From: a virus
Lineage: Duplodnaviria > Caudoviricetes
Strand: one strand, 5' to 3'
DNA: 64,000 nucleotides
Virus record (IMG/VR): IMGVR_UViG_3300037991_006036
Span: 58,294-122,293 of that record
Below are positions 35,595 through 64,000 of this stretch, piece after piece. Numbering within the stretch: the first letter of the stretch is position 1; the number at the start of each line of letters is the position of its first letter. The notes under the pieces are model-generated. The model was not told the origin of the DNA. It made no database searches and saw only the letters and a list, made by a program, of their open reading frames with translations. The position numbers were made by a program, and so were the translations under genes.

Positions 35595-36602
35595 CTAATA
35601 AGTTTTGTAATAATTGTTAATATTAGTCTCTATAGCTGCTCTGTCAGTAGTCTTGTCTGCTAAATACATTATTAATTCAACTGGGTTTGCTGCATTATTA
35701 GATAATGCTTTATCGGGATAAAAAGTACTCCCCATTCGTGGAATAGTAGTCTCACTTCCTGATGCTATTTTATTTCCTTCAAAATATAAAGCTGTTTCTC
35801 CTGGTGCTTCATTAACAATAGCTGTTATTGTGTTTAGTGCATCTTGAGTGTGAGTTGCTGATCCTGATATATGACCTATGGTGCCATAAGGAGCATTCGA
35901 CCCTGTTTCAAGAGTTATGACATCACTTACTGTTTCTATTATTTCTTTACCTGCAGTGTGTTCAGCTAAATTTAGATAAAATTGTGATGCTGCATGAGCG
36001 TAGTTGGTTACAAACACTGTATGAGATGTTCCTGGATCTATGTCTTGGAGTCTTGCAGTAGCAGCATATTGTTTGTAAGTTTCGTTTAGATATAAGATAC
36101 TGCCCGAAACATACACATTACCACTTGTATCTGATACGAATAGAGAATTAGATCCAGCATTAATAGAATTTCTCACAGTTCCTTGCGATTGATCATACCA
36201 AGTATGCAATCTTCCCTGATTTCCATCTAAAAATGTACTTAAACTTTGTGTATCTAAATAATTGTCAATAAACCCAATATCCAATTCAGCATCATCAGAA
36301 GCACGTCTTACCCTAATAGCTGAGCCAGTGTAATCAGTACGTAGCTTTCTTAAAGACCATGCTAAATAAACGTCATCTCCATAATCATCTAACAGAAGTG
36401 ATGTTGATCCGCCAGGATTAGATCCTGCAGCCATTGCTCTTGCTGCTAACTCCTGTCGAAGATGTTCTTGATATCGTAAAAACGCTTCTTTTTTTCTTCG
36501 CTGATTTTGTTTCTTTTTAGCCTCAAACGCTTCTTCCTCTTGCAGTTTTTGTTTTGCTGCCCAATCTCGAATATGATCTGCATTTCTGAGAAAGTCTTTC
36601 AT
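35595..36602 (-). CDS. Shared-N-terminus protein with ArabFuranosidase-B-like/lectin domain
   Basis: Same N-module; AWSLRKLRTDYTGSAIRVRRASD..WYDQS..IETNINNYY. Confidence 0.7.
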   Translation of the reverse strand: MKDFLRNADHIRDWAAKQKLQEEEAFEAKKKQNQRRKKEAFLRYQEHLRQELAARAMAAGSNPGGSTSLLLDDYGDDVYLAWSLRKLRTDYTGSAIRVRRASDDAELDIGFIDNYLDTQSLSTFLDGNQGRLHTWYDQSQGTVRNSINAGSNSLFVSDTSGNVYVSGSILYLNETYKQYAATARLQDIDPGTSHTVFVTNYAHAASQFYLNLAEHTAGKEIIETVSDVITLETGSNAPYGTIGHISGSATHTQDALNTITAIVNEAPGETALYFEGNKIASGSETTIPRMGSTFYPDKALSNNAANPVELIMYLADKTTDRAAIETNINNYYKTY

Positions 36603-44746: not shown

Positions 44747-45112
44747 TTATGAGAATTCATCAAATAAGTCTACTACTTTTTCCTCTTCTGCTTTGCTTAG
44801 AGGTCCATCATCAAACATGCCTGATATGTCATAATCACTTTCACCTTTAAGAGTAAGCTCACCTTCGTGAGATTTGCCTGCTGCATCCACATAGATGAAT
44901 TCTATCCTGGTACCCATAGCATATTTATCTTCAGCCATCTCTACTGCGTCAGCATAAATATCATTATCTAATTCCGTAGGTTTAGGAAACTGCATATCAG
45001 TACTTCCGTTATCCATACGTGAGATTAAAATTGTGTTTGGTTGAGCTATTGCTTCATTGAGACCAGCGATCTCCATCAGCCTTTTTCTTGTAAAATATTT
45101 ATTCATTTTCAT
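44747..45112 (-). CDS. Class-A leader protein
   Basis: MKMNKYFTRKRLMEIAGLNE plus acidic body. Confidence 0.8.
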   Translation of the reverse strand: MKMNKYFTRKRLMEIAGLNEAIAQPNTILISRMDNGSTDMQFPKPTELDNDIYADAVEMAEDKYAMGTRIEFIYVDAAGKSHEGELTLKGESDYDISGMFDDGPLSKAEEEKVVDLFDEFS

Positions 45113-45117
45113 TGAAT

Positions 45118-45447
45118 TTATAGTTGTATTGCTTCAGTAGCTTTTTTTAATGACATTGCGTTTATCGATGGGTCTTTCTTTTTCATATAAGCAATCAATT
45201 GTTCAAACCATTCTACCTCATACTCATCGTTAGATGCCCAATCTCCAGACTCTAAACTTGCTATAACGTCAGCCGGTTTTGCTGGTTCTTCTCTCATTGA
45301 TTCATCAGCTGTTTGTTCATCAAAGTTATCTGGATTAATATCTAGTAAATTTTCAATTACACCATATCCTGCATCTTGATCTGCTACTTCGTTGATTGGC
45401 AATCCTGCCATCTCCATTAGTCTTTTTTTTGTAAAATATTTACTCAT
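45118..45447 (-). CDS. Class-A leader protein
   Basis: MSKYFTKKRLMEMAGLPINE plus acidic body. Confidence 0.8.
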   Translation of the reverse strand: MSKYFTKKRLMEMAGLPINEVADQDAGYGVIENLLDINPDNFDEQTADESMREEPAKPADVIASLESGDWASNDEYEVEWFEQLIAYMKKKDPSINAMSLKKATEAIQL

Positions 45448-45734
45448 TTTTCTAGTATTGCTATTAATCGTTTATGGCCCTCTTCAGCACCAGTTTTATC
45501 TCCTCGTTTCAAAGCGTCGATAACATCACTCAAAGCTGAAGCTTCAGTGTGATAGTTAACATCAGTTGCGCTGTCTTCTACTTTTTCAAGTTCAGCAACG
45601 TCAGCAGTCTGTACATCAATATTCTTCATATACTCTATCATGCCATCGTAATCAAAATTACTAGCCCATCTTTGGCCAGGCTGAAAAGTCTCCTTGAGAC
45701 CCGCTAATTGTTTAAATCTACTTTTACTTATCAT
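45444..45734 (-). CDS. Class-A leader protein
   Basis: MISKSRFKQLAGLKE plus acidic body. Confidence 0.8.
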   Translation of the reverse strand: MISKSRFKQLAGLKETFQPGQRWASNFDYDGMIEYMKNIDVQTADVAELEKVEDSATDVNYHTEASALSDVIDALKRGDKTGAEEGHKRLIAILEK

Positions 45735-45982
45735 AGGTAATCTCTTAAACCGTATTCGGATTGTTGCATTGGATTAGCTTTAAAGAAAGTCTTTAACTCC
45801 TCACGAGCTTGATCCATCTTTTCTTCGTAGTCAGGACCATCTAGCTCCTCTGGCATATCTACATCAGTTAACTCAAACGCTGATGACATATCGTCAGCTA
45901 AGAATTCATCAATAGCATCCTCAAGTTGCATATCAGTCATTGACTCGTTAATGTGTTGTGGTATAAGGTCTCTCAGTTTCAT
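45731..45982 (-). CDS. Class-B-like leader protein, very acidic
   Basis: MKLRDLIPQHINE plus D/E-rich body. Confidence 0.8.
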   Translation of the reverse strand: MKLRDLIPQHINESMTDMQLEDAIDEFLADDMSSAFELTDVDMPEELDGPDYEEKMDQAREELKTFFKANPMQQSEYGLRDYL

Positions 45983-46134
45983 AAGCTATCTTCTTTTTTA
46001 ACGTATATTAGTTTTTCACGAATCTTATCCCAGATCGTGTAATCCAGTTTATCTTTAGGTAATCCGTCCAGATAGCCTTTCAGCCACGTTACGAATTCTT
46101 CTGGAGTAATATCGGTTGTGTTATTTCCTGCCAT
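45979..46134 (-). CDS. 51-aa hypothetical protein (MAGNNTTDITPEEFVTWLKGYLDG...)
   Basis: Manually translated; fills the gap, with an ATGA overlap to the next gene. Confidence 0.65.
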   Translation of the reverse strand: MAGNNTTDITPEEFVTWLKGYLDGLPKDKLDYTIWDKIREKLIYVKKEDSL

Positions 46135-46137
46135 GGT

Positions 46138-46482
46138 TTACTTAGTTATAAAATCATCATATACACCTTGATCAATACCATCCTCTAACCACTGAGCACC
46201 ATTATTACCTAACCATATCTCTAAATCTTCTCGCATTGTTTCCGCAAGTTTTTGCTGCTGTGCTTTATCGTTAGGATCCATTATAATGTTAGCATCCATC
46301 TCTTCAGCAGATGTTAGAAAATACTCAACAGCTCTTTCAAACATCACTGTCATTTCAACATCACCTCCTGCTGCAGAAGGAATAACTTTAGCATTAGACT
46401 CCTTTAGATTCTCTTGTTTAGGTTCAACAAAAGGATTGTTGATAGCGGCTAACTCTTGAAGCCTTTTCTTAGTTGTTTTCAT
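46138..46482 (-). CDS. Class-A leader protein
   Basis: MKTTKKRLQELAAINN..NLKE. Confidence 0.8.
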   Translation of the reverse strand: MKTTKKRLQELAAINNPFVEPKQENLKESNAKVIPSAAGGDVEMTVMFERAVEYFLTSAEEMDANIIMDPNDKAQQQKLAETMREDLEIWLGNNGAQWLEDGIDQGVYDDFITK

Positions 46483-47042
46483 TATTCTTCGTTTTCCGTT
46501 TCTTTTTCTCCTTCGAGTGATTCAATAGCATCTCTTACAAGAGAAGTAAAGAATCCATGAATAGCATCATTACTATATCCAGCATCAACTTGATCTGCGA
46601 TCATCTTTTCAAGTGCTTGATCTAATAGATTAAAAGCAGCCTTATCAGAGTCTTGTCGCATAGTCATGATTGTACCAGCTTGACGTGATATAAGGTTTTC
46701 CGCTTCTTCCTCAAAACTCTCACTTAGAGCCGTGGCGCGTTCTAACATTAAGCCGCCGTATTTTTCGACCCCTTGAAATTGGTCAGTGGGCACGATATCC
46801 ATAAGACGGAATCCCCCTTGTATCGCTCCTCCAAGCATGTCAAGGACTTCTTGCCTATCGTTTGTCTTTAGTGGCCCGACAGTGAAGTCTTGACCTAATA
46901 CTCTATATACAGCAATATACCCCTTATGCTTCTTGTATTGGTTAGCACTTACGTTATTATTGTAATTGAGTTTAGCATTATCTGCTTTGGGATCTTCTTT
47001 AAGACCCGCCATCTCCATTAATCGTTGTTTGGTTAGTTTCAT
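46482..47042 (-). CDS. Class-A leader protein, two modules
   Basis: MKLTKQRLMEMAGLKE; internal MLE..LSE linker. Confidence 0.8.
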   Translation of the reverse strand: MKLTKQRLMEMAGLKEDPKADNAKLNYNNNVSANQYKKHKGYIAVYRVLGQDFTVGPLKTNDRQEVLDMLGGAIQGGFRLMDIVPTDQFQGVEKYGGLMLERATALSESFEEEAENLISRQAGTIMTMRQDSDKAAFNLLDQALEKMIADQVDAGYSNDAIHGFFTSLVRDAIESLEGEKETENEE

Positions 47043-47044
47043 AG

Positions 47045-47365
47045 TTATAGCAATTTTCCTAATGCACTCATGTCCATAAGTGTTTGGATGTCTTTATATA
47101 TTTTTATCTCGTTCTGTATAGCCATTAGATTTTCCGATTGATTTCTGGGATCACCTTTTACTACTTTAGCTACCTCTTCGAGATCCTTAATTAGACCGGG
47201 AAGGTTATCTGCTAATGCATAGTATCCATCCTCTAAAGACTGAGCTACCATACCAATTTCATCATAATCGATTATGGCTGATAATGGCTCTGGATCATTA
47301 GGATTAGTGAGACCTAATTGTATCTCCTTAATACCCGCTAATTCTTGTAGTCTGCTTTTTTTCAT
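47045..47365 (-). CDS. Class-A leader protein
   Basis: MKKSRLQELAGIKE. Confidence 0.8.
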   Translation of the reverse strand: MKKSRLQELAGIKEIQLGLTNPNDPEPLSAIIDYDEIGMVAQSLEDGYYALADNLPGLIKDLEEVAKVVKGDPRNQSENLMAIQNEIKIYKDIQTLMDMSALGKLL

Positions 47366-47366
47366 A

Positions 47367-47573
47367 TTATCTTATATCATGCTTTTCTAGGACCTCCATA
47401 ACAATAGGAATCATGTTTGCACTTAATAAAGAACCTCCTCTATTATTCTGCTCTATTACTGCATCCATAATCTCCTGCGCTAAGGTTTCTTGAAATTTCC
47501 CTGAGCCCAAGGAGTGAACACTTACGGGTGCTTCCTTAATATTAGCTAATTCTTGTAATCTACTCTTCTTCAT
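47367..47573 (-). CDS. Class-A leader protein (start corrected to 47573)
   Basis: MKKSRLQELANIKE; TAA-T-ATG junction. Confidence 0.8.
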   Translation of the reverse strand: MKKSRLQELANIKEAPVSVHSLGSGKFQETLAQEIMDAVIEQNNRGGSLLSANMIPIVMEVLEKHDIR

Positions 47574-47574
47574 A

Positions 47575-47820
47575 TTACTGTATGTTTCCAGATCCGTCCT
47601 CTGGGATAATTGCATTTAAAAAGTTAAGGACATCACCTTTATCAAACCCCTCTGCATACCACCCGTCTAATAGCTTATCCATAGAGTCGATCATTTTCTT
47701 GTATTGTGCTACATCAGCCATACCCTCCATCCTAGATACTAGTTCTCTGAAGTATGGTGTATTAGTGTTTTGCTGATACTCCTTGATGTTAGCTAACTCC
47801 ATTAATCTACTCTTTTTCAT
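47575..47820 (-). CDS. Class-A leader protein
   Basis: MKKSRLMELANIKE. Confidence 0.8.
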   Translation of the reverse strand: MKKSRLMELANIKEYQQNTNTPYFRELVSRMEGMADVAQYKKMIDSMDKLLDGWYAEGFDKGDVLNFLNAIIPEDGSGNIQ

Positions 47821-47821
47821 A

Positions 47822-48025
47822 TTATCTTACTTTATGTTTTTCCATGATTGCAGCTGCTAAGTCATAGAATAGAGGATAGTCTACTGATCCGCCTGATAAA
47901 GCACCACCTTCTTCCTCGTCTTTCTGAACCAACTCTACTAGCTCATCGGCAATTGTTTTAATCTTGAGGTTATATCCATCGACTTCATTTAACCCTGCTA
48001 ACTCTTGCAATCTGCTCTTTTTCAT
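47822..48025 (-). CDS. Class-A leader protein
   Basis: MKKSRLQELAGLNE; body resembles 47367..47573 (GG[AS]L..EKHxxR). Confidence 0.8.
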   Translation of the reverse strand: MKKSRLQELAGLNEVDGYNLKIKTIADELVELVQKDEEEGGALSGGSVDYPLFYDLAAAIMEKHKVR

Positions 48026-58657: not shown

Positions 58658-59001
58658 TAGTTTTGGTATTTTTCAAATTCAAATGTTGGATTACTCTTTT
58701 CCAATTTAACTTGTCGATCTCTCAATGCAGTTCCTAACTCTTTATCATTAGGAGTTGTCTTAATTGTATGACTGATAGGGTTTGCATTGATTGGTAGCTT
58801 AATACCAAAGACTGTTTTAATCTCTTTGTCAGATAAAACGTCTGCACTCACCACACTTCCTGGCCATATTGCAGTATAAGGTGATTCCTTTATTACATAA
58901 AAGAGACGCTCATCTCCGTCTGTAAATCCAGTTGGAATAAACCTCACTACCTCATCTTCTGTTTCTAAATTGTAAATTGTTGCTGTGCTTAACTTGTCCA
59001 T
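58657..59001 (-). CDS. Hypothetical protein
   Basis: 114 aa; TPNDKELG motif. Confidence 0.65.
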   Translation of the reverse strand: MDKLSTATIYNLETEDEVVRFIPTGFTDGDERLFYVIKESPYTAIWPGSVVSADVLSDKEIKTVFGIKLPINANPISHTIKTTPNDKELGTALRDRQVKLEKSNPTFEFEKYQN

Positions 59002-59021
59002 ATGTTTAATTTATTTGATTA

Positions 59022-59050
59022 AATATACGGACTTTTATTCGATTTTGCAA
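59022..59050 (-). promoter_or_regulatory. Host-type promoter TTGCAA-N17-TATATT
   Basis: Upstream of 59001; marks the switch from the leader cluster to non-leader genes. Confidence 0.55.
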
Positions 59051-59581
59051 CTATGCTTTGACTGATTTTATTATAATATCTGGATATTTGTCTTGAAGCT
59101 TTGCTACTGCATCTACATTCTTCTGAGAATCATCTATAAAGAATATCTTGTTATAACCTTTCTTGATTTCCTTTTCAATATACTCAGCTTTCTTTTGTGG
59201 ATTAGAGTCACCTACTGGTACAATGTATGGGTCAATGTTGTGTTGTGTCTTGAAGAAATGCTTCATTGGATATCCCATTGCACGTGCTGTTAGTATAGTG
59301 ACTTTGTTTTGTGCATTAGACATAGCTTTCTTCAGCATCTTCATGTTACGATCAATAGTCTGTGGATTCTTTAACATGCTGTTAAAATCTTTCCAATCAA
59401 ACTTATCACCTGGCTCCTCTTCGTACTTGGCATACTCAGCTGGATCCAAAGTTAATTTAGTTCCATCTGCTTTTGTTATGTATATGTAAGATTCAGATGT
59501 AGCTAATGTATCATCAAAGTCAAATATGACAAGTCGTTTGCCAAGTTGCTTTTCGTTTAATATTTCAGCTAGTTTGATCAT
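59051..59581 (-). CDS. HAD-superfamily phosphatase with class-B leader
   Basis: MIKLAEILNE; FDFDDTL, ILTAR, K, FIDDS motifs. Confidence 0.85.
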   Translation of the reverse strand: MIKLAEILNEKQLGKRLVIFDFDDTLATSESYIYITKADGTKLTLDPAEYAKYEEEPGDKFDWKDFNSMLKNPQTIDRNMKMLKKAMSNAQNKVTILTARAMGYPMKHFFKTQHNIDPYIVPVGDSNPQKKAEYIEKEIKKGYNKIFFIDDSQKNVDAVAKLQDKYPDIIIKSVKA

Positions 59582-60645
59582 CCCTTCTTCCAGCCTCCTC
59601 CAGCTGCTTTGTATTTTTTAGCTGCCCATGCATTAGCATAAGCACTTGGATAAACATCAAATTTCTTCTTAGCTTGTGACTTGTAATATGACCATTTTGA
59701 TGGATTAGTTGGTACATTCTTTTCTAAAAATAACTCCAACTTTTCATGTAGCTTGTTACTCATTTCGTTTGCTTTAGTTTTTACTCTAATAGGTTTACGT
59801 CCTTGTCCTGGTTGTTTCTTTCCTCCTCTACCAGCTTTATTTTGTGCTGCTCGTTTTCTACGAGTAGCTGATTCTTTTTCTTTCTTACTCATGGTTCTTG
59901 CTTTAGCAGCAGGAACACACTTAGCATATCCTCTCTTCTTACCACTTGTTCCACATTCTGGATGCTTACCAGATTTATCCTTCTTTCCAATATTCACCCA
60001 CTTCTGTTTGAACCACTTACGAAGATCTTCTGAGAGCTCTACTTTCTTGAGTTTGTCTTGATTTTTCATATACCAATCTAACCAGGTTTTTTTGATTTCA
60101 TTCCAATCTGCATCTTTGTGATGTTGAAAGTTTAGTATATTTTCCTTTTGCCAATCATCCATCACTTGATCGAGTGTTTGTTTTTTGTATCTCGCTCTTG
60201 TTATAAAACCCTTAACATAAGCAGGCACTTCAACAGCACTTGTTAAGTATCCTTGATAAGTGTCATGGTCTTTGTCAGATCCTGTGACTATAAACATATC
60301 ATCAAAATTCTGTTGTCCAACATGCTCAAGCTCGTGTCTAACCGACTCTCTAATCTCTGCAATAAAGTCATTCATAGCTGCTGGGAACATTTTTGGGTTA
60401 TACTCTATATCTAAGGTTAGCTTATCCGAAGATCCTCCTCCAGTTATTGAGTGTGAGTATTCTTGATTAGGTCTTTTGTGAAACTTTGCAACTAAATCAA
60501 ACTCTGCTTCTTCATCACCTCGCTCTATCACATACATCTCTTTGAAGTTTCTTTTATTCTTAAACGCATCAACAATGTCTTTAGATATCATCTTGGTATA
60601 TGAATCAAATATTCCTTCGTACAGTATATCTTTCAGCTTACTCAT
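59578..60645 (-). CDS. Modular class-B leader protein: HExxH domain plus basic DUF5872-like modules
   Basis: MSKLKDILYE; RHELEH..EVPAY; LSE-DLRKWFKQKWV; YPSAYANAW. Confidence 0.75.
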   Translation of the reverse strand: MSKLKDILYEGIFDSYTKMISKDIVDAFKNKRNFKEMYVIERGDEEAEFDLVAKFHKRPNQEYSHSITGGGSSDKLTLDIEYNPKMFPAAMNDFIAEIRESVRHELEHVGQQNFDDMFIVTGSDKDHDTYQGYLTSAVEVPAYVKGFITRARYKKQTLDQVMDDWQKENILNFQHHKDADWNEIKKTWLDWYMKNQDKLKKVELSEDLRKWFKQKWVNIGKKDKSGKHPECGTSGKKRGYAKCVPAAKARTMSKKEKESATRRKRAAQNKAGRGGKKQPGQGRKPIRVKTKANEMSNKLHEKLELFLEKNVPTNPSKWSYYKSQAKKKFDVYPSAYANAWAAKKYKAAGGGWKKG

Positions 60646-61232
60646 TTCTTTTTTCCACTCTTCATGTTAGCACACCAATGATACATCTTACCTCTTTCAC
60701 CACCATACTTCTTAGCTCTTGCTCGCAAATCAGTTACTGATCCTTTACAACTAGCTCCTGCACGTTTGACTCTACCTGGACGACTCTTGCCTTTCTTTTT
60801 TCCATCTTTGAAGTTTTCAGAAACTGCTTCATATTTTTTCCAATTCTCTTCTGCTTTCAGAGCTTCTTTTTCATATGGATGATTTGTGTAGTTAAATCCT
60901 TTATCATAAAACTCTTTAAACTTTGCTTGGTCTTGTAGTGTGTGTGTATGTTCATGCAATAAGGATCTAATAATATTTTCTTCAGTTATCATTAGTTCTG
61001 AATATAAATATATGATGTTATCGTATGGATCATATTCAGCATCTGGATTACCTTCTTCTCGTTTTAGATCCTCAACTGCAACTGCACCTAATCTATCCCA
61101 TATGTTTGGATGAACCTCAACTGGCTTAGCTTGTCCACCTAAGTCTTTAACTATTTGTGGATACACTCTATCAACAATCTTCTTGATCTCGCTCTCAGTC
61201 ACTTCTTTCAATATGTCTTTTAGCTTAATCAT
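60642..61232 (-). CDS. Class-B leader protein: HExxH metallopeptidase-like domain plus basic C-module
   Basis: MIKLKDILKE; LLHEHTH..PYEKEA; VSE-NFKDGKKKGKSRPGR. Confidence 0.75.
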   Translation of the reverse strand: MIKLKDILKEVTESEIKKIVDRVYPQIVKDLGGQAKPVEVHPNIWDRLGAVAVEDLKREEGNPDAEYDPYDNIIYLYSELMITEENIIRSLLHEHTHTLQDQAKFKEFYDKGFNYTNHPYEKEALKAEENWKKYEAVSENFKDGKKKGKSRPGRVKRAGASCKGSVTDLRARAKKYGGERGKMYHWCANMKSGKKK

Positions 61233-62230
61233 TTTGTTTGCCTCTCTCTATCTGTAGGATATAGTTGAAAGTAATCATCGTATGCTCTGTATCTGTAGCT
61301 GTTGTTTAACTTGGGTAGTTGCTTCTTTATGTATGCTGAGTATAGCTTTCCTCTTTTGCTAGAGGTTCCATACTCTGATTCATCCTCCTCAACCTTCGGT
61401 TCAATATTAATCTCATGTATTACGAAATACTCATCCCACTCATTGATCCATTGCAATACGATAGCTACTATTGTAGCCATCACTCTGTATTGTTCATGCA
61501 TGTTAGTCATCCTCATCTTATTGTCTATTTTACCAAAAGACTTAGTATAGAAATCAACGCCAACTTCGAGACCTTCTTGTTCATAATCTCCATCTGAATC
61601 ATATTCAATCTTTACAATATATTCAGTTCCCTTATCTGTTTTAAATTGAAAATTAGAATCTCCTAGATAAGCAGTAGTCGATCCACCACCATATCGTTGC
61701 TGTTTAAACTCAGCAGGAGTCCACATGATGTTGTTGAGGGATTGTTCTTTCCAATCATATGGTTTGATAGATGCATCTCCTATCTCTTTCAACATAGGCA
61801 TGAGCTTAGTCATATCTGCTCTATCAACTGGCATCTCTTCTTTTCCTACTTCCTTATCATCAGTAGGAATATCCTCATACATACTGATCGTATCTCCTGA
61901 CATCTCCCAAGGACCCCAATGCTTTGCTTTGAGTATCCATTTTAGTGATTCATCTGTATTGTAGTATTTGTTATCCTCCTTACGAACACCTCCAATAGCA
62001 TAGTATAAATCTTTAGGTACTTCTAACTTTTTTCCATTAGAGTGATCTAATACTGTATCGTTTGTTTCTACCCAAGCATGACCAAATCTCTTACCTTCCA
62101 ATGCTCCTTGTCCATTCACCATTCCATGCACTAGTGTGTGATCACCACGTAACTTTGTCATAAGTCTGCCAGCTGCTTGATAACAATCTCCAGTTGCAAC
62201 TTCTAGTAATATGTTGTTAAGTTTGATCAT
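61229..62230 (-). CDS. Class-B leader protein: Cys/His (papain/transglutaminase-like) domain plus second domain
   Basis: MIKLNNILLE; GDCY..LVHG..GHAWVE..D; internal LKE-IGD. Confidence 0.7.
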   Translation of the reverse strand: MIKLNNILLEVATGDCYQAAGRLMTKLRGDHTLVHGMVNGQGALEGKRFGHAWVETNDTVLDHSNGKKLEVPKDLYYAIGGVRKEDNKYYNTDESLKWILKAKHWGPWEMSGDTISMYEDIPTDDKEVGKEEMPVDRADMTKLMPMLKEIGDASIKPYDWKEQSLNNIMWTPAEFKQQRYGGGSTTAYLGDSNFQFKTDKGTEYIVKIEYDSDGDYEQEGLEVGVDFYTKSFGKIDNKMRMTNMHEQYRVMATIVAIVLQWINEWDEYFVIHEINIEPKVEEDESEYGTSSKRGKLYSAYIKKQLPKLNNSYRYRAYDDYFQLYPTDRERQTK

Positions 62231-62430
62231 TCAAATTTTCTTCTATACTTTGCACGTTGATCTTCTAGTACATACTCAACTACATCTCTTTTACCGCAAT
62301 GTGGACAATTCAAATGCTCAATGTTTTCAGCTTCATTAATCTTCCACTCTCCTTTGCAGGAGCTACACTTATAAATGTATGTGTGTCGGATAAATACTTT
62401 GTGGCTCATATCTGTGTGTCGGGATACCAA
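62227..62430 (-). CDS. Zinc-ribbon protein
   Basis: CSSC..CPHC; true start probably MSHK. Confidence 0.65.
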   Translation of the reverse strand: MVSRHTDMSHKVFIRHTYIYKCSSCKGEWKINEAENIEHLNCPHCGKRDVVEYVLEDQRAKYRRKFE

Positions 62431-62458
62431 TCGTTGTCATCCCATTCGTCTGGTTGAT

Positions 62459-62932
62459 TCATTTTATTGGTCCTCCTCCGACCCAAGCATCGCAAGATCT
62501 AGCTCCTGCACACTTGAACCAAAAGAATTCACAGAAACCTATATTTGCATTTTTAACTATCGTTTTGCCATCTGGTCCTATGGCTTTTTCAATTTTATTG
62601 AGTGTAGCTTTCTTCTGATCAAATGCTCCACAATTACCACACCTTGATTGTTTAGCAGCTTCTACTGTAGTATTCCACAGCTCAGCTTTATCTTCCCAAA
62701 AAGGTTCAGATCCTTTTTCGTCATCTGGATTGAGTGGTCCATAACTATATTCTTTGATTGTACGATTTCTGTTTAGAGTATTAAGATCTAAATCAGTAAT
62801 CGAATCCTCAGGCTTACCATCTTTGTTACCAATCTCCTTTTCTTTTTTCAAAGCAGCTGGAGTATTGTATCCATCATAATCTGATAACTTTCCTTCAAGG
62901 ACAATGTCTTTTACTATTCCTTTGAGTTTCAT
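62459..62932 (-). CDS. Cys-rich protein with class-B-like leader
   Basis: MKLKGIVKDIVLE; RCGNC..FCE..KC..CDAW metal-binding pattern. Confidence 0.75.
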   Translation of the reverse strand: MKLKGIVKDIVLEGKLSDYDGYNTPAALKKEKEIGNKDGKPEDSITDLDLNTLNRNRTIKEYSYGPLNPDDEKGSEPFWEDKAELWNTTVEAAKQSRCGNCGAFDQKKATLNKIEKAIGPDGKTIVKNANIGFCEFFWFKCAGARSCDAWVGGGPIK

Positions 62933-63504
62933 TAGAATTTACCTATCATTATTTTAGTTACCGGCTGTCCATTAATCTGTCTTGTGTACCATCCATTTCC
63001 AGGTTTGTTGCCTTTAGGATGTTTTCCATGCCATGTTGTCTCTTTAGATCTTCTATCACCTAATACTTTACGTACTTGTGCTTCATCTTCTACTACTGGA
63101 ACACCTCCTCTACCTACAAACGTATCGAAAGCAGCACCTGACACTTCTACATAGTTTCCAGGCTTCTTGAGTTCAGCTGACTTCTTTGTTAAAAGGTTTT
63201 TGATATTCCCTCGTTCACCGTCATGTCCCATTCCAGTGTGTTTAACTCCAAATGGTGTTTCTTTTCCAAAATACACTACATCAATCTCAGGATCTGCATC
63301 CAAGTCAGCAACTCTCCAGAATTTGAGATTTGGATCTGTCATCTTATCTGGACTCTTGTATTTGAGATGTCCTCCAATAGGAGCATAGGCATTTGCAACA
63401 AGGTTATAGAGATCTTGTTTTAGATCATCCACGTCTGCGCTTGTTGGCTCTACATATTTACCTTTAGGTAAATCTAATTCTTTTAGAATGTCTTTCAGTT
63501 TCAT
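62932..63504 (-). CDS. Class-B leader protein, unknown function
   Basis: MKLKDILKE; first gene after the late motif. Confidence 0.8.
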   Translation of the reverse strand: MKLKDILKELDLPKGKYVEPTSADVDDLKQDLYNLVANAYAPIGGHLKYKSPDKMTDPNLKFWRVADLDADPEIDVVYFGKETPFGVKHTGMGHDGERGNIKNLLTKKSAELKKPGNYVEVSGAAFDTFVGRGGVPVVEDEAQVRKVLGDRRSKETTWHGKHPKGNKPGNGWYTRQINGQPVTKIMIGKF

Positions 63505-63516
63505 TAAAGGTGTTTC

Positions 63517-63978
63517 CTATAAATAGTCTTCAAAAATTTTAAGTGGGGTTCTGTGACCGTGATCTCTTAGATAGTATTTCATCTGACCTTCTGCAATGCT
63601 CTTTCTAAGCATGTTAGCAGTTTTAGTAGGATCAATCACATCATCCTCACTACCATTAATCATCACACCGACCACTTCGTTAGGTCCCTCATAAACACCC
63701 TCAGGCTCAAAAGCTCTACTGTGGAGAGCAGGATTAAGAAGCACAACTGGTGTCTTTGTATGAGTAGCAATCATATAAGCAAAGTAGCCTCCCATACTAC
63801 TACCAATGAGTAAGTCAGGCTTGACACTATTGACTAACTCTAACATGTGTTTGAATAAATTAGGATCTTGATAATCCATCTCAGGAGCAAGCACATAGTA
63901 TTTTTTAGCAAGGAAATCAACCTTTGGCCCTCCTTGCCCACTCTCTAAACCGTGAAAATATATTACTTTTTGTTTCAT
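63517..63978 (-). CDS. Alpha/beta hydrolase (YqiA/UPF0227-like esterase)
   Basis: YFHGLES, GSSMGG nucleophile elbow, LLNPAL, DDVI, GH. Confidence 0.85.
   Translation of the reverse strand: MKQKVIYFHGLESGQGGPKVDFLAKKYYVLAPEMDYQDPNLFKHMLELVNSVKPDLLIGSSMGGYFAYMIATHTKTPVVLLNPALHSRAFEPEGVYEGPNEVVGVMINGSEDDVIDPTKTANMLRKSIAEGQMKYYLRDHGHRTPLKIFEDYL
63518..63525 (-). promoter_or_regulatory. Putative late promoter TATTTATA
   Basis: CTATTTATAG overlapping the upstream stop codon, 13 nt before the class-B cluster. Confidence 0.55.
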
Positions 63979-63987
63979 TCTCTCTCT

Positions 63988-64000
63988 CTTTACGTAGTAA
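63988..64000 (-). promoter_or_regulatory. Repeated palindromic promoter (copy 5, truncated)
   Basis: CTTTACGTAGTAA at the window end, upstream of the 63978 start. Confidence 0.55.

Follow-up and report, generated by a model that had tools for sequence, protein, structure and literature searches.

Multi-module proteins with T4-like leaders and hydrophobic-x-Glu joints: candidate capsid cargo in an uncultured ocean phage

Three adjacent genes of an uncultured ocean T4-like phage, designated here B (59578-60645, 355 amino acids (aa)), C (60642-61232, 196 aa) and D (61229-62230, 333 aa), each encode a ten-residue N-terminal leader followed by two or three modules. They lie in the window, the 64-kb stretch of DNA that was analysed and that forms the end of a 122,293-bp IMG/VR virus contig (record positions 58294-122293; estimated completeness 71%). 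The genes across 59051-63978 are all on the minus strand, as are the leaders and modules of B, C and D. A sequence-only reading of this stretch had described the three products as polyprotein-like cargo, in which unrelated modules joined by internal [LIV]-x-E linkers are imported by one leader and then released by the prohead protease. The three open reading frames (ORFs), their leaders and the quoted motifs are present where that reading had placed them, including the HExxH signatures of B (HELEH) and C (HEHTH). The abrupt charge switches that it reported at the module borders are confirmed by net charges of -8, +24 and +9 for the consecutive B modules Bn (residues 11-206), Bm (207-301) and Bc (302-355), and of -11 and +17 for the C modules Cn (11-139) and Cc (140-196). 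Below, homologous proteins, mostly metagenomic, are labelled P and related loci or contigs L, each with a number, and ↓ marks a joint.

The leaders are MSKLKDILYE in B (60616..60645), MIKLKDILKE in C (61203..61232) and MIKLNNILLE in D (62201..62230). All three are candidate capsid targeting sequences (CTSs) of a type that we call the class-B leader, M-x-K-L-x-x-I-L-x-E. In phage T4, the internal proteins IPI, IPII, IPIII and Alt carry a CTS and are processed by gp21, a protease of family S77 (Mullaney and Black 1996; PMC9026906, PMC3012670). The T4 CTS has 10-19 residues, of which positions 4 and 7 are tied to targeting and positions 8 and 10 to processing, and gp21 cleaves after L/I-x-E with few further determinants (PMC9026906). 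Like the T4 CTS, the class-B leaders and an internal relic in D have hydrophobic residues at positions 4, 7 and 8 and Glu at position 10. The same class-B leader sits on unrelated domains within the cluster and on further domains in relatives. On homologous domains elsewhere it is replaced by a T4-type leader (MKTY..F..E or MKHLKLFEEHINE), with the mature N-terminus unchanged.

The corresponding head machinery is encoded on the same contig, outside the window. A Peptidase_S77 prohead protease (contig 36125-36589; PF03420, 94.4 bits, E 3.9e-28) has 33% identity to T4 gp21 and conserves GELxHP and SSRGxGS, the motifs of the catalytic His and Ser. A gp23-type major capsid protein (PF07068, E 2.3e-76) aligns with T4 gp23 and has a plausible propeptide site, L-L-K-E55↓G, immediately before the conserved mature region. 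The protease and the capsid protein therefore identify the phage, judged from its genes, as a divergent T4-like myovirus; baseplate wedge and cobS/cobT-like genes are found inside the window. Most of the 20 large window ORFs have no match in PHROGs. A DNA search of positions 59000-64000 against 50,697 phage records returned a sole match of 139 bp, so that no close cultured relative was found. The class-B leader co-occurs with the S77 protease in this genome and in two relatives, one of which (G001) is estimated to be 98% complete. The sequence-level marks of T4 CTS cargo are thus present together: an S77 protease, a leader of ten residues, and conservation of that leader on unrelated cargo.

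One could suppose instead that the leader is no capsid address at all, that these are cytoplasmic proteins whose conserved 5' sequence serves translation, regulation or recombination, and that the Glu motifs are functionless. The cluster does lie far from the head genes, adjoining small genes of unknown function, and conserved leader DNA could serve solely as a recombination site. However, the leader is conserved as protein, in the pattern of the T4 CTS positions; T4-type leaders can take its place on the same domains without a shift of the mature N-terminus; the leader accompanies the S77 protease in all three genomes named above; and a virion protein of cyanophage S-SCSM1, described below, carries a Bm-like module. 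We regard the cytoplasmic explanation as improbable.

Gene D is built of two units separated by a relic of a leader. The first, Dn (residues 11-139; 61814..62200), is a Cys/His hydrolase-like domain (GDCY ... GHAWV ... LDHS) with an acidic C-terminal tail, the linker 108-149 having a net charge of -7. The second, Dc (residues 150-333; 61232..61783), is an acidic GNAT-like domain starting IGDAS. Between them, residues 140-149 (MTKLMPMLKE; 61784..61813) form what we term a fossil leader, which ends in the candidate internal cleavage site L-K-E149↓I150. Dn occurs as a stand-alone leader protein of 148 aa in five related contigs (L008-L010, L012, L013), and it has 46% identity to the 114-aa gp61 of Mycobacterium phage Barnyard. 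Dc occurs as a separate gene of 194-196 aa with the leader M-I-K-L-K-N-I-L-L-E↓I-G-D-A-S (P0155, P0157, P0159, P0161) and, in P0221, behind a T4-type leader. In these stand-alone proteins the domain begins exactly at the equivalent of I150, directly after its own leader, and D residues 140-149 fall column for column on the stand-alone leader MIKLKNILLE. At the DNA level 22 of 30 bases of the fossil leader are identical to the C leader (hand count). A scan of JGI metagenomes found the stand-alone Dc gene away from Dn (L023, L024); one contig has it upstream of Dn, with the two as separate genes. Given this alignment with the stand-alone Dc leader, D is an end-to-end fusion of two leader-plus-domain cassettes. 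That the fusion is an assembly artefact was ruled out by the presence of the fused form in five independent relatives.

The fossil leader is far better kept than the domain behind it. Three D orthologues (P0156, P0158, P0160) have 81-93% identity to D in Dn, 88-94% in the acidic linker and 90-100% in the fossil leader, against 20-31% in Dc, and a divergent orthologue (P0162), which has only two of the ten fossil-leader residues in common with D, still ends in I-N-E↓V. Similar relics stand at internal joints of other, independent fusions: ...G-K-H-I-K-L-K-S-L-L-L-E↓G-K-M-G-D-C-Y in P0175, N-P-K-L-K-D-I-L-L-E↓G in P0223, K-I-N-A-I-L-S-E↓G within a fusion of the neighbouring gene product A to Cn in L013, M-S-L-M-S-I-L-K-E ahead of the domain of gene G in L008, and T-K-L-T-D-I-L-N-E↓I following Cn in P0277 and P0320. 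The fusions found include A+Cn, A+Cc, Dn+Cc and A+Dn+x+Cc, the last being P0180, a 563-aa chain that holds A, Dn, another domain and a Cc-type tail and keeps a fossil leader.

Two products could in principle be made from D without any cleavage, if translation also started internally at Met140 and yielded Dc with its own leader. Residue 140 is encoded by ATG, the following 30 bases resemble a leader-coding start, and T4 genes 17 and 21 use internal starts. Against this, P0158 has Ile at position 140, which argues against an obligatory internal start, and the relics of L008, L013 and P0175 are without Met with the rest of the leader kept. We give an internal start a very small chance of being the explanation.

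As to the nature of the two D domains, GDCY, GHAWV and LDHS are conserved in Dn, which has a weak fold match to NTAQ1 (3c9q, Z 6.2) and reaches 14.4 bits against Transglut_core3, for which the cut-off is 26. The 50 fold-match rows of Dc are mostly GNAT acetyltransferases, with weak matches at Z 6-7 over residues 154-333; Foldseek gave E 0.04, and PF22028 (DUF6934) 16.5 bits against a cut-off of 27.

In gene B, Bn (60028..60615) is an acidic, zincin-like HExxH domain (HELEH ... EVPAYV) that ends at the joint L-S-E206. Bm (59743..60027) is a basic module starting DLRKWF and followed by a Gly/Lys-rich linker that ends in L-H-E301. Bc (59581..59742) begins with KLELFLE, a leader-like half-site ending in F-L-E308, and continues as basic KNVPTNP...YPSAYANAW...GGGW. 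Homologues of B were collected by an exhaustive phmmer search (2787 representatives). Matches to the N-terminal domain stop at residues 195-202 and matches to the basic part start at 204-207. B residues 1-202 correspond to stand-alone proteins of 204-234 aa with the same leader (P0007, P0037, P0146, P0034, P0050), which terminate where B has K-L-K-K-V. The basic part, residues 204-353, is found in N-terminal, central or C-terminal position in proteins of 93-1239 aa. Bm and Bc recur in hundreds of further architectures, where their distinct Pfam partners number at least 15, and the partners in 118 proteins with the basic part of B include DUF5872, DUF6321, DUF3008, Pterin_4a, Peptidase_S78, lysozyme, ferritin and HNH. 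Metagenomic fusions of a Bm/Bc-type module were seen with a Peptidase_S78 prohead protease in one case, and with lysozyme and a Zeta-toxin-type kinase in others.

Profile searches place both basic modules in known families. Bm matches phrog_23735 at E 1.7e-17 and Bc matches phrog_27331. The whole B protein has no DUF5872 match in Pfam at E <= 0.1, whereas residues 207-355 scanned alone reach 29.3 bits (E 1.5e-6) and pass the DUF5872 threshold of 27.5 bits. Positions 1-38 of the DUF5872 profile are matched by Bc and positions 53-108 by Bm of relatives; DUF5872 is thus itself composed of two modules, whose order is reversed in B. The fold matches of Bn are assorted zincins, all weak (Z 4-5.5), and B has no match to PF18818, MPTase-PolyVal.

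Bm is 93% identical to its counterpart in the relative L007, versus 46% for Bn; along the whole protein, identity to the L007 counterpart rises from about 45% over the first 200 residues to about 97% from residue 205 on, with a 7-residue indel in the Bm-Bc linker and V-T-E↓K in place of L-H-E↓K. Together with the D orthologues, in which identity also breaks at the joint, this argues for exchange of modules at the joints with the joints retained. In P0022 the T4-type leader MKTYIDFFTE is joined straight to the KNVPTNP of Bc. Bm also occurs behind leaders of decreasing length, from M-I-K-L-K-N-I-L-Q-E↓D-L-R-A-W-F through M-I-K-L-S-E↓D and M-I-K-E↓D to M-N-E↓D (P0118, P0149, P0005, P0056 and others). 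This graded series looks like erosion of the leader, and the eroded forms may not reach the capsid.

Gene C has the same layout on a smaller scale. Cn (60816..61202) is an acidic HExxH domain that ends at the joint V-S-E139, and Cc (60645..60815) is a basic tail starting NFKDGKKKG. Nearly all of the 3566 homologues of C are 135-139 aa long and end at about C residue 135, and approximately 3500 of them are Cn alone, with C-termini that read ...A-E-(E/K)-N-W-K-K-Y-x and leaders either of class B or of the T4-type form M-K-H-L-K-L-F-E-E-H-I-N-E. Fusion of Cn to Cc is rare among them. The Cc tail follows other domains as well, namely Dn (L014, P0163), the HAD phosphatase of gene A (L012) and further domains (L007, L011, P0180), and in these fusions it is invariably preceded by V/I/L/F-x-E. 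No Pfam or PDB match was obtained for Cc, and tblastn of C against the phage records gave no match. The Cn and Bn domains were considered as possible relatives, but hhalign of the two families returned a probability of only 17% and we do not claim relatedness.

The HExxH signatures of B and C raise the question of self-cleavage, in which these domains would release the basic tails themselves and the prohead protease would not be involved. Both proteins have HExxH with a downstream Glu, C has a weak match to PF18818 (MPTase-PolyVal), and autoproteolysis has been proposed for such domains (Iyer et al. 2017, PMC5512222). The PF18818 score of C is, however, 14.5 bits, far under the cut-off of 27.5. 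The same tails with their hydrophobic-x-E joint follow domains that are not peptidases (the HAD phosphatase A, the Cys hydrolase Dn and others), D is without HExxH, and Cn is nearly always alone, with nothing to release. Self-cleavage is accordingly highly improbable in our judgement.

The sequence-only reading had rested on the Glu motifs at the domain changes, and their placement stands: the joints LSE206↓D, LHE301↓K and FLE308↓K in B, VSE139↓N in C and LKE149↓I in D coincide with module borders found independently by homology. As for the modules being unrelated, separate searches found each of them elsewhere, alone or in other combinations. The proposed [LIV]-x-E consensus has to be relaxed to hydrophobic-x-E, because FLE308 has Phe at the third position before the cut (P3). 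We dropped counts of bare [LIV]-x-E as evidence, as they are not above what chance would give (6 in B versus 3.2 expected, 5 versus 3.4 in C, 5 versus 5.0 in D); the case thus rests on the position of the motif and not on its number. Joint statistics were based on 493 distinct proteins, with a background of 0.022 hydrophobic-x-E per position. Among distinct internal contexts, the motif stands directly before Bc in 35 of 38, before Cc in 24 of 26 and before Dc in 7 of 7; these contexts share descent and are not independent trials, and the register was chosen with the hypothesis known. Before Bm the motif is present in 38 of 70 contexts, and the Glu is missing in six phages that are not T4-like.

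Structure prediction agrees with this placement, and the proposed check for disordered linkers came out in favour of exposed joints. The sequence-only reading would have been refuted by joint motifs lying inside folded domains, and in the models of B and D they do not. In the AlphaFold2 (AF2) model of B (mean predicted local distance difference test score, pLDDT, 77.3), Bn is modelled over residues 11-200 at about 90 and residues 309-355 are confident, whereas values fall below 50 at 202-208 and 272-308. LSE206, LHE301 and FLE308 lie in the low-confidence segments, and VIE41, IAE97 and IRE100 lie inside the fold (pLDDT >90). The model of D (mean pLDDT 70.6) is folded over residues 15-107 and 155-333, with low confidence at 108-135 and at 143-153 (<50), the latter segment holding L-K-E149. 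Searches of the B and D models against the PDB with Foldseek returned nothing at E <= 0.001, and querying PDB sequences with the basic modules and Cn and Bn profiles gave nothing usable, the designed-protein matches of Cn being low-complexity helices.

Taken together, B, C and D have a modular make-up with joints at the module borders, D contains a fossil leader, identity to relatives breaks at the joints, and the genome encodes the protease. We lean slightly towards the explanation that the leader mediates loading of fused cargo and that the prohead protease then cuts at the leader and at the exposed joints. By analogy with T4, the 10-residue leader would act like a CTS and dock the protein on the prohead scaffolding core, after which the gp21-type (S77) protease would remove it after hydrophobic-x-Glu. 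Behind one leader would thus travel two or three modules, an acidic enzyme-like domain with, in B and C, leaderless basic passengers, and in D a second module that would retain a worn copy of its own former leader. The protease would most likely also cut the exposed hydrophobic-x-Glu joints and so free the modules within the head, and these would exit with the DNA during infection. The proposal of the sequence-only reading that the basic pieces bind DNA is, like packaging, cleavage and ejection, a prediction from sequence and analogy. The conserved leader and joint sequences appear to double as recombination points at which cargo is swapped between phages.

The same proteins could be packaged through their leader and remain uncut internally. 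The basic modules would then be tails for DNA binding or retention, which would keep the acidic enzymes attached to packaged DNA or steer them to host nucleic acid, and the joint Glu would be a leader remnant or belong to the first residues of the module. Basic C-terminal tails are found on very many unrelated enzymes, as expected of a targeting appendage; Bm is leaderless in podoviruses; some proteins with a leader have Thr, Ser or Lys at P3 of the joint; and T4 IPIII fusions are packaged as fusions. On the other hand, a dead remnant would be expected to decay, whereas the fossil leader of D with its L-K-E is far better kept than Dc, and even the divergent orthologue retains I-N-E↓V. The absence of the Glu before Bm in six non-T4-like phages means that the fold does not require it, the joints are predicted to be exposed, and T4 gp21 needs little beyond L/I-x-E. 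We consider uncut tails unlikely, yet the main rival to our explanation.

Several further observations weigh against loading and cutting of fused cargo as we propose it. The phage is an uncultured contig known from sequence alone and about 71% complete, and bare [LIV]-x-E, as stated above, is not above chance in any of the three proteins. At P3 of the Bm joint, several metagenomic proteins with a leader carry Thr, Ser or Lys, which misfits the T4 rule, and the C joint has Val at P3, a residue seen there in none of the phage's own leaders. A helix cap, or a conserved residue at the head of the module and inherited with it, could also account for the Glu in front of Bm, Bc and Cc. The N-terminus M-N-E-D-L-R-K-W-F, which is found in many proteins, is too short for a targeting leader. 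The AF2 models of B and D are only moderately confident overall. Finally, Bm alone forms ORFs of 79-98 aa, some of them stop-to-stop, in six non-T4-like phages (Pelagibacter phages HTVC027P, 203P, 023P and 106P, phage 023Pt_psg01 and phage DSL-LC04), and the Glu-Asp prelude is missing from all six; in the podoviral (Pelagibacter) cases Bm adjoins replication genes and has no visible leader, a T4-type protease not having been searched for there. From its leaderless stand-alone occurrence in podoviruses it follows that the module is independent of this capsid-loading route.

Modules of the same kind occur in cultured cyanophages. In 472 phage records, nearly all of them cyanophages, we found modules of SBM3_00185 of S-BM3 (T4-GC119), in which Bm, Bc and DUF6321 modules follow VMKE↓D, IEE↓K and LNE↓K. 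The S-BM3 gene lies just downstream of the small terminase gene (L005:2330-3343). The T4-like cyanophage S-SCSM1 encodes a protein, ORF29, in whose translation modules of Bm-like, Bc-like and DUF6321 type were recognized by eye, with joints VSE↓G and LNE↓K; the sole scored match, that of the Bm-like module, is weak (E 3.9e-4, 18 bits, 38% identity). This gene (L033:2663-4216) is located two genes upstream of terL. The S-SCSM1 record labels ORF29 a 'virion protein', and the S-SCSM1 paper reports a virion proteome by mass spectrometry. These cyanophage DUF5872/DUF6321 proteins (T4-GC119 of Sullivan et al. 2010; ORF29) thus resemble B in having Bm and Bc modules split by hydrophobic-x-E, and at least one was detected in virions; in contrast to B, they are without a class-B leader or a front enzyme domain and lie beside terminase genes. 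In a full-text literature search T4-GC119 appeared only as a hypothetical protein within a mobile cassette.

Comparison with characterized systems suggests that B, C and D probably work like the T4 internal-protein system, with multi-module cargo as the new element. The two share a 10-residue leader pattern, a gp21-like protease and diverse cargo that includes small basic proteins. In T4, foreign passengers fused C-terminally to IPIII or to the CTS alone are packaged into the head and delivered (PMC9026906), and Alt is cut at both ends, while gp22, gp67 and gp68 are cut at several sites (PMC9026906; PMC3012670); the riding of engineered C-terminal passengers on one CTS and the cutting of Alt at both ends are further likenesses. 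The natural T4 internal proteins are, however, single-module, whereas the present ones are multi-module with fossil leaders and are inferred from genome data, and the leader M-I-K-L-K-D-I-L-x-E differs in sequence from that of T4. The head and inner-body proteins of phiKZ, 201phi2-1 and SPN3US, like T4 gp22, gp67 and gp68, offer a parallel in that a gp21-related protease cuts one chain at several Glu sites inside the prohead. There, the multi-site processing mostly removes propeptides or destroys scaffold, and the phiKZ motif is S/A-x-E; in the present phage, which is T4-like and far smaller, each piece would be a functional module of its own, shuffled between proteins.

The polyvalent proteins known from phages and conjugative elements, which have 2 to 15 domains per chain and for which processing by their own peptidase domains has been proposed (Iyer, Burroughs, Anand, de Souza, Aravind 2017, PMC5512222), are another point of reference. 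They also combine unrelated effector-like domains in one chain with combinatorial shuffling, often include zincin-like HExxH domains, and are predicted to travel with the DNA and be processed. The present proteins differ from them in their small size (196-355 aa), T4-type leader, prohead-protease-type joints and a PF18818 score below threshold. For T4-like marine phages, a full-text literature search returned no account of internal fossil leaders or of CTS cargo that is naturally multi-module. The T4 CTS is a textbook device, and to our knowledge the natural cargo described so far consists of single proteins and comes from a few coliphages.

A broader proposal, which we put forward as possible but tentative, is that ocean T4-like phages share a combinatorial cargo system in which leader cassettes and leaderless basic modules (the DUF5872 halves, DUF6321, Cc) are joined, separated and exchanged through recombination at the conserved leader and joint sequences, with the resulting fusions then resolved by the protease in the capsid. 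The basic modules would be counterparts of the DNA-associated T4 proteins IPII and IPIII that enter as passengers, and the enzymes would be injected effectors of host takeover or anti-defence. If the fusions are packaged and cut as proposed, very few address tags would suffice for abundant ocean phages to stock their heads with a reshuffled range of enzymes and basic proteins, and common viral domains (DUF5872, DUF6321 and the Cn family, with thousands of members) would gain a testable role. Fusion of a domain behind any leader via a Glu joint would then be a route for the recruitment of injected effectors, and such proteins would provide natural templates for multi-protein delivery by engineered phage capsids.

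The remaining genes of the cluster extend the leader set. Class-B leaders of the form M-(x)-K-L-x-x-I-L-x-E start A, B, C, D and G; counting the longer variant in F, six cluster genes carry one. A (59051-59581) is HAD/PNK-phosphatase-like (PF11019 at 1.5e-8, phrog_415), and F (62459-62932) and G (62932-63504) are of unknown function. Two genes are without the class-B leader, namely E (listed as 62227-62430), a zinc ribbon, and H, an alpha/beta hydrolase within 59051-63978. The listed TTG start of E is probably wrong, as relatives begin at an internal M-S-H-K-V (60-62 aa), i.e. near 62409. In relatives A is fused to Cn, Cc or Dn, and G is located behind an acidic 100-aa segment and a leader relic.

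Other leader-like sequences are found on the contig. Between the protease and the scaffold gene, in the contig region 34625-38089 outside the window, two small ORFs of 128 and 124 aa have leader-like N-terminal stretches, K-N-I-L-K-Q-L-S-E and L-I-D-I-L-G-E-L-M-L-E, and may correspond to gp67 and gp68 of the T4 core. A second leader class, M-K-K-S-R-L-Q-E-L-A-G-I-K-E and variants each ending in L/I-x-E, occurs in the window at 44747-48025 on the minus strand, where it starts the small acidic proteins of a tandem array; these form a candidate cargo set of their own under another address tag.

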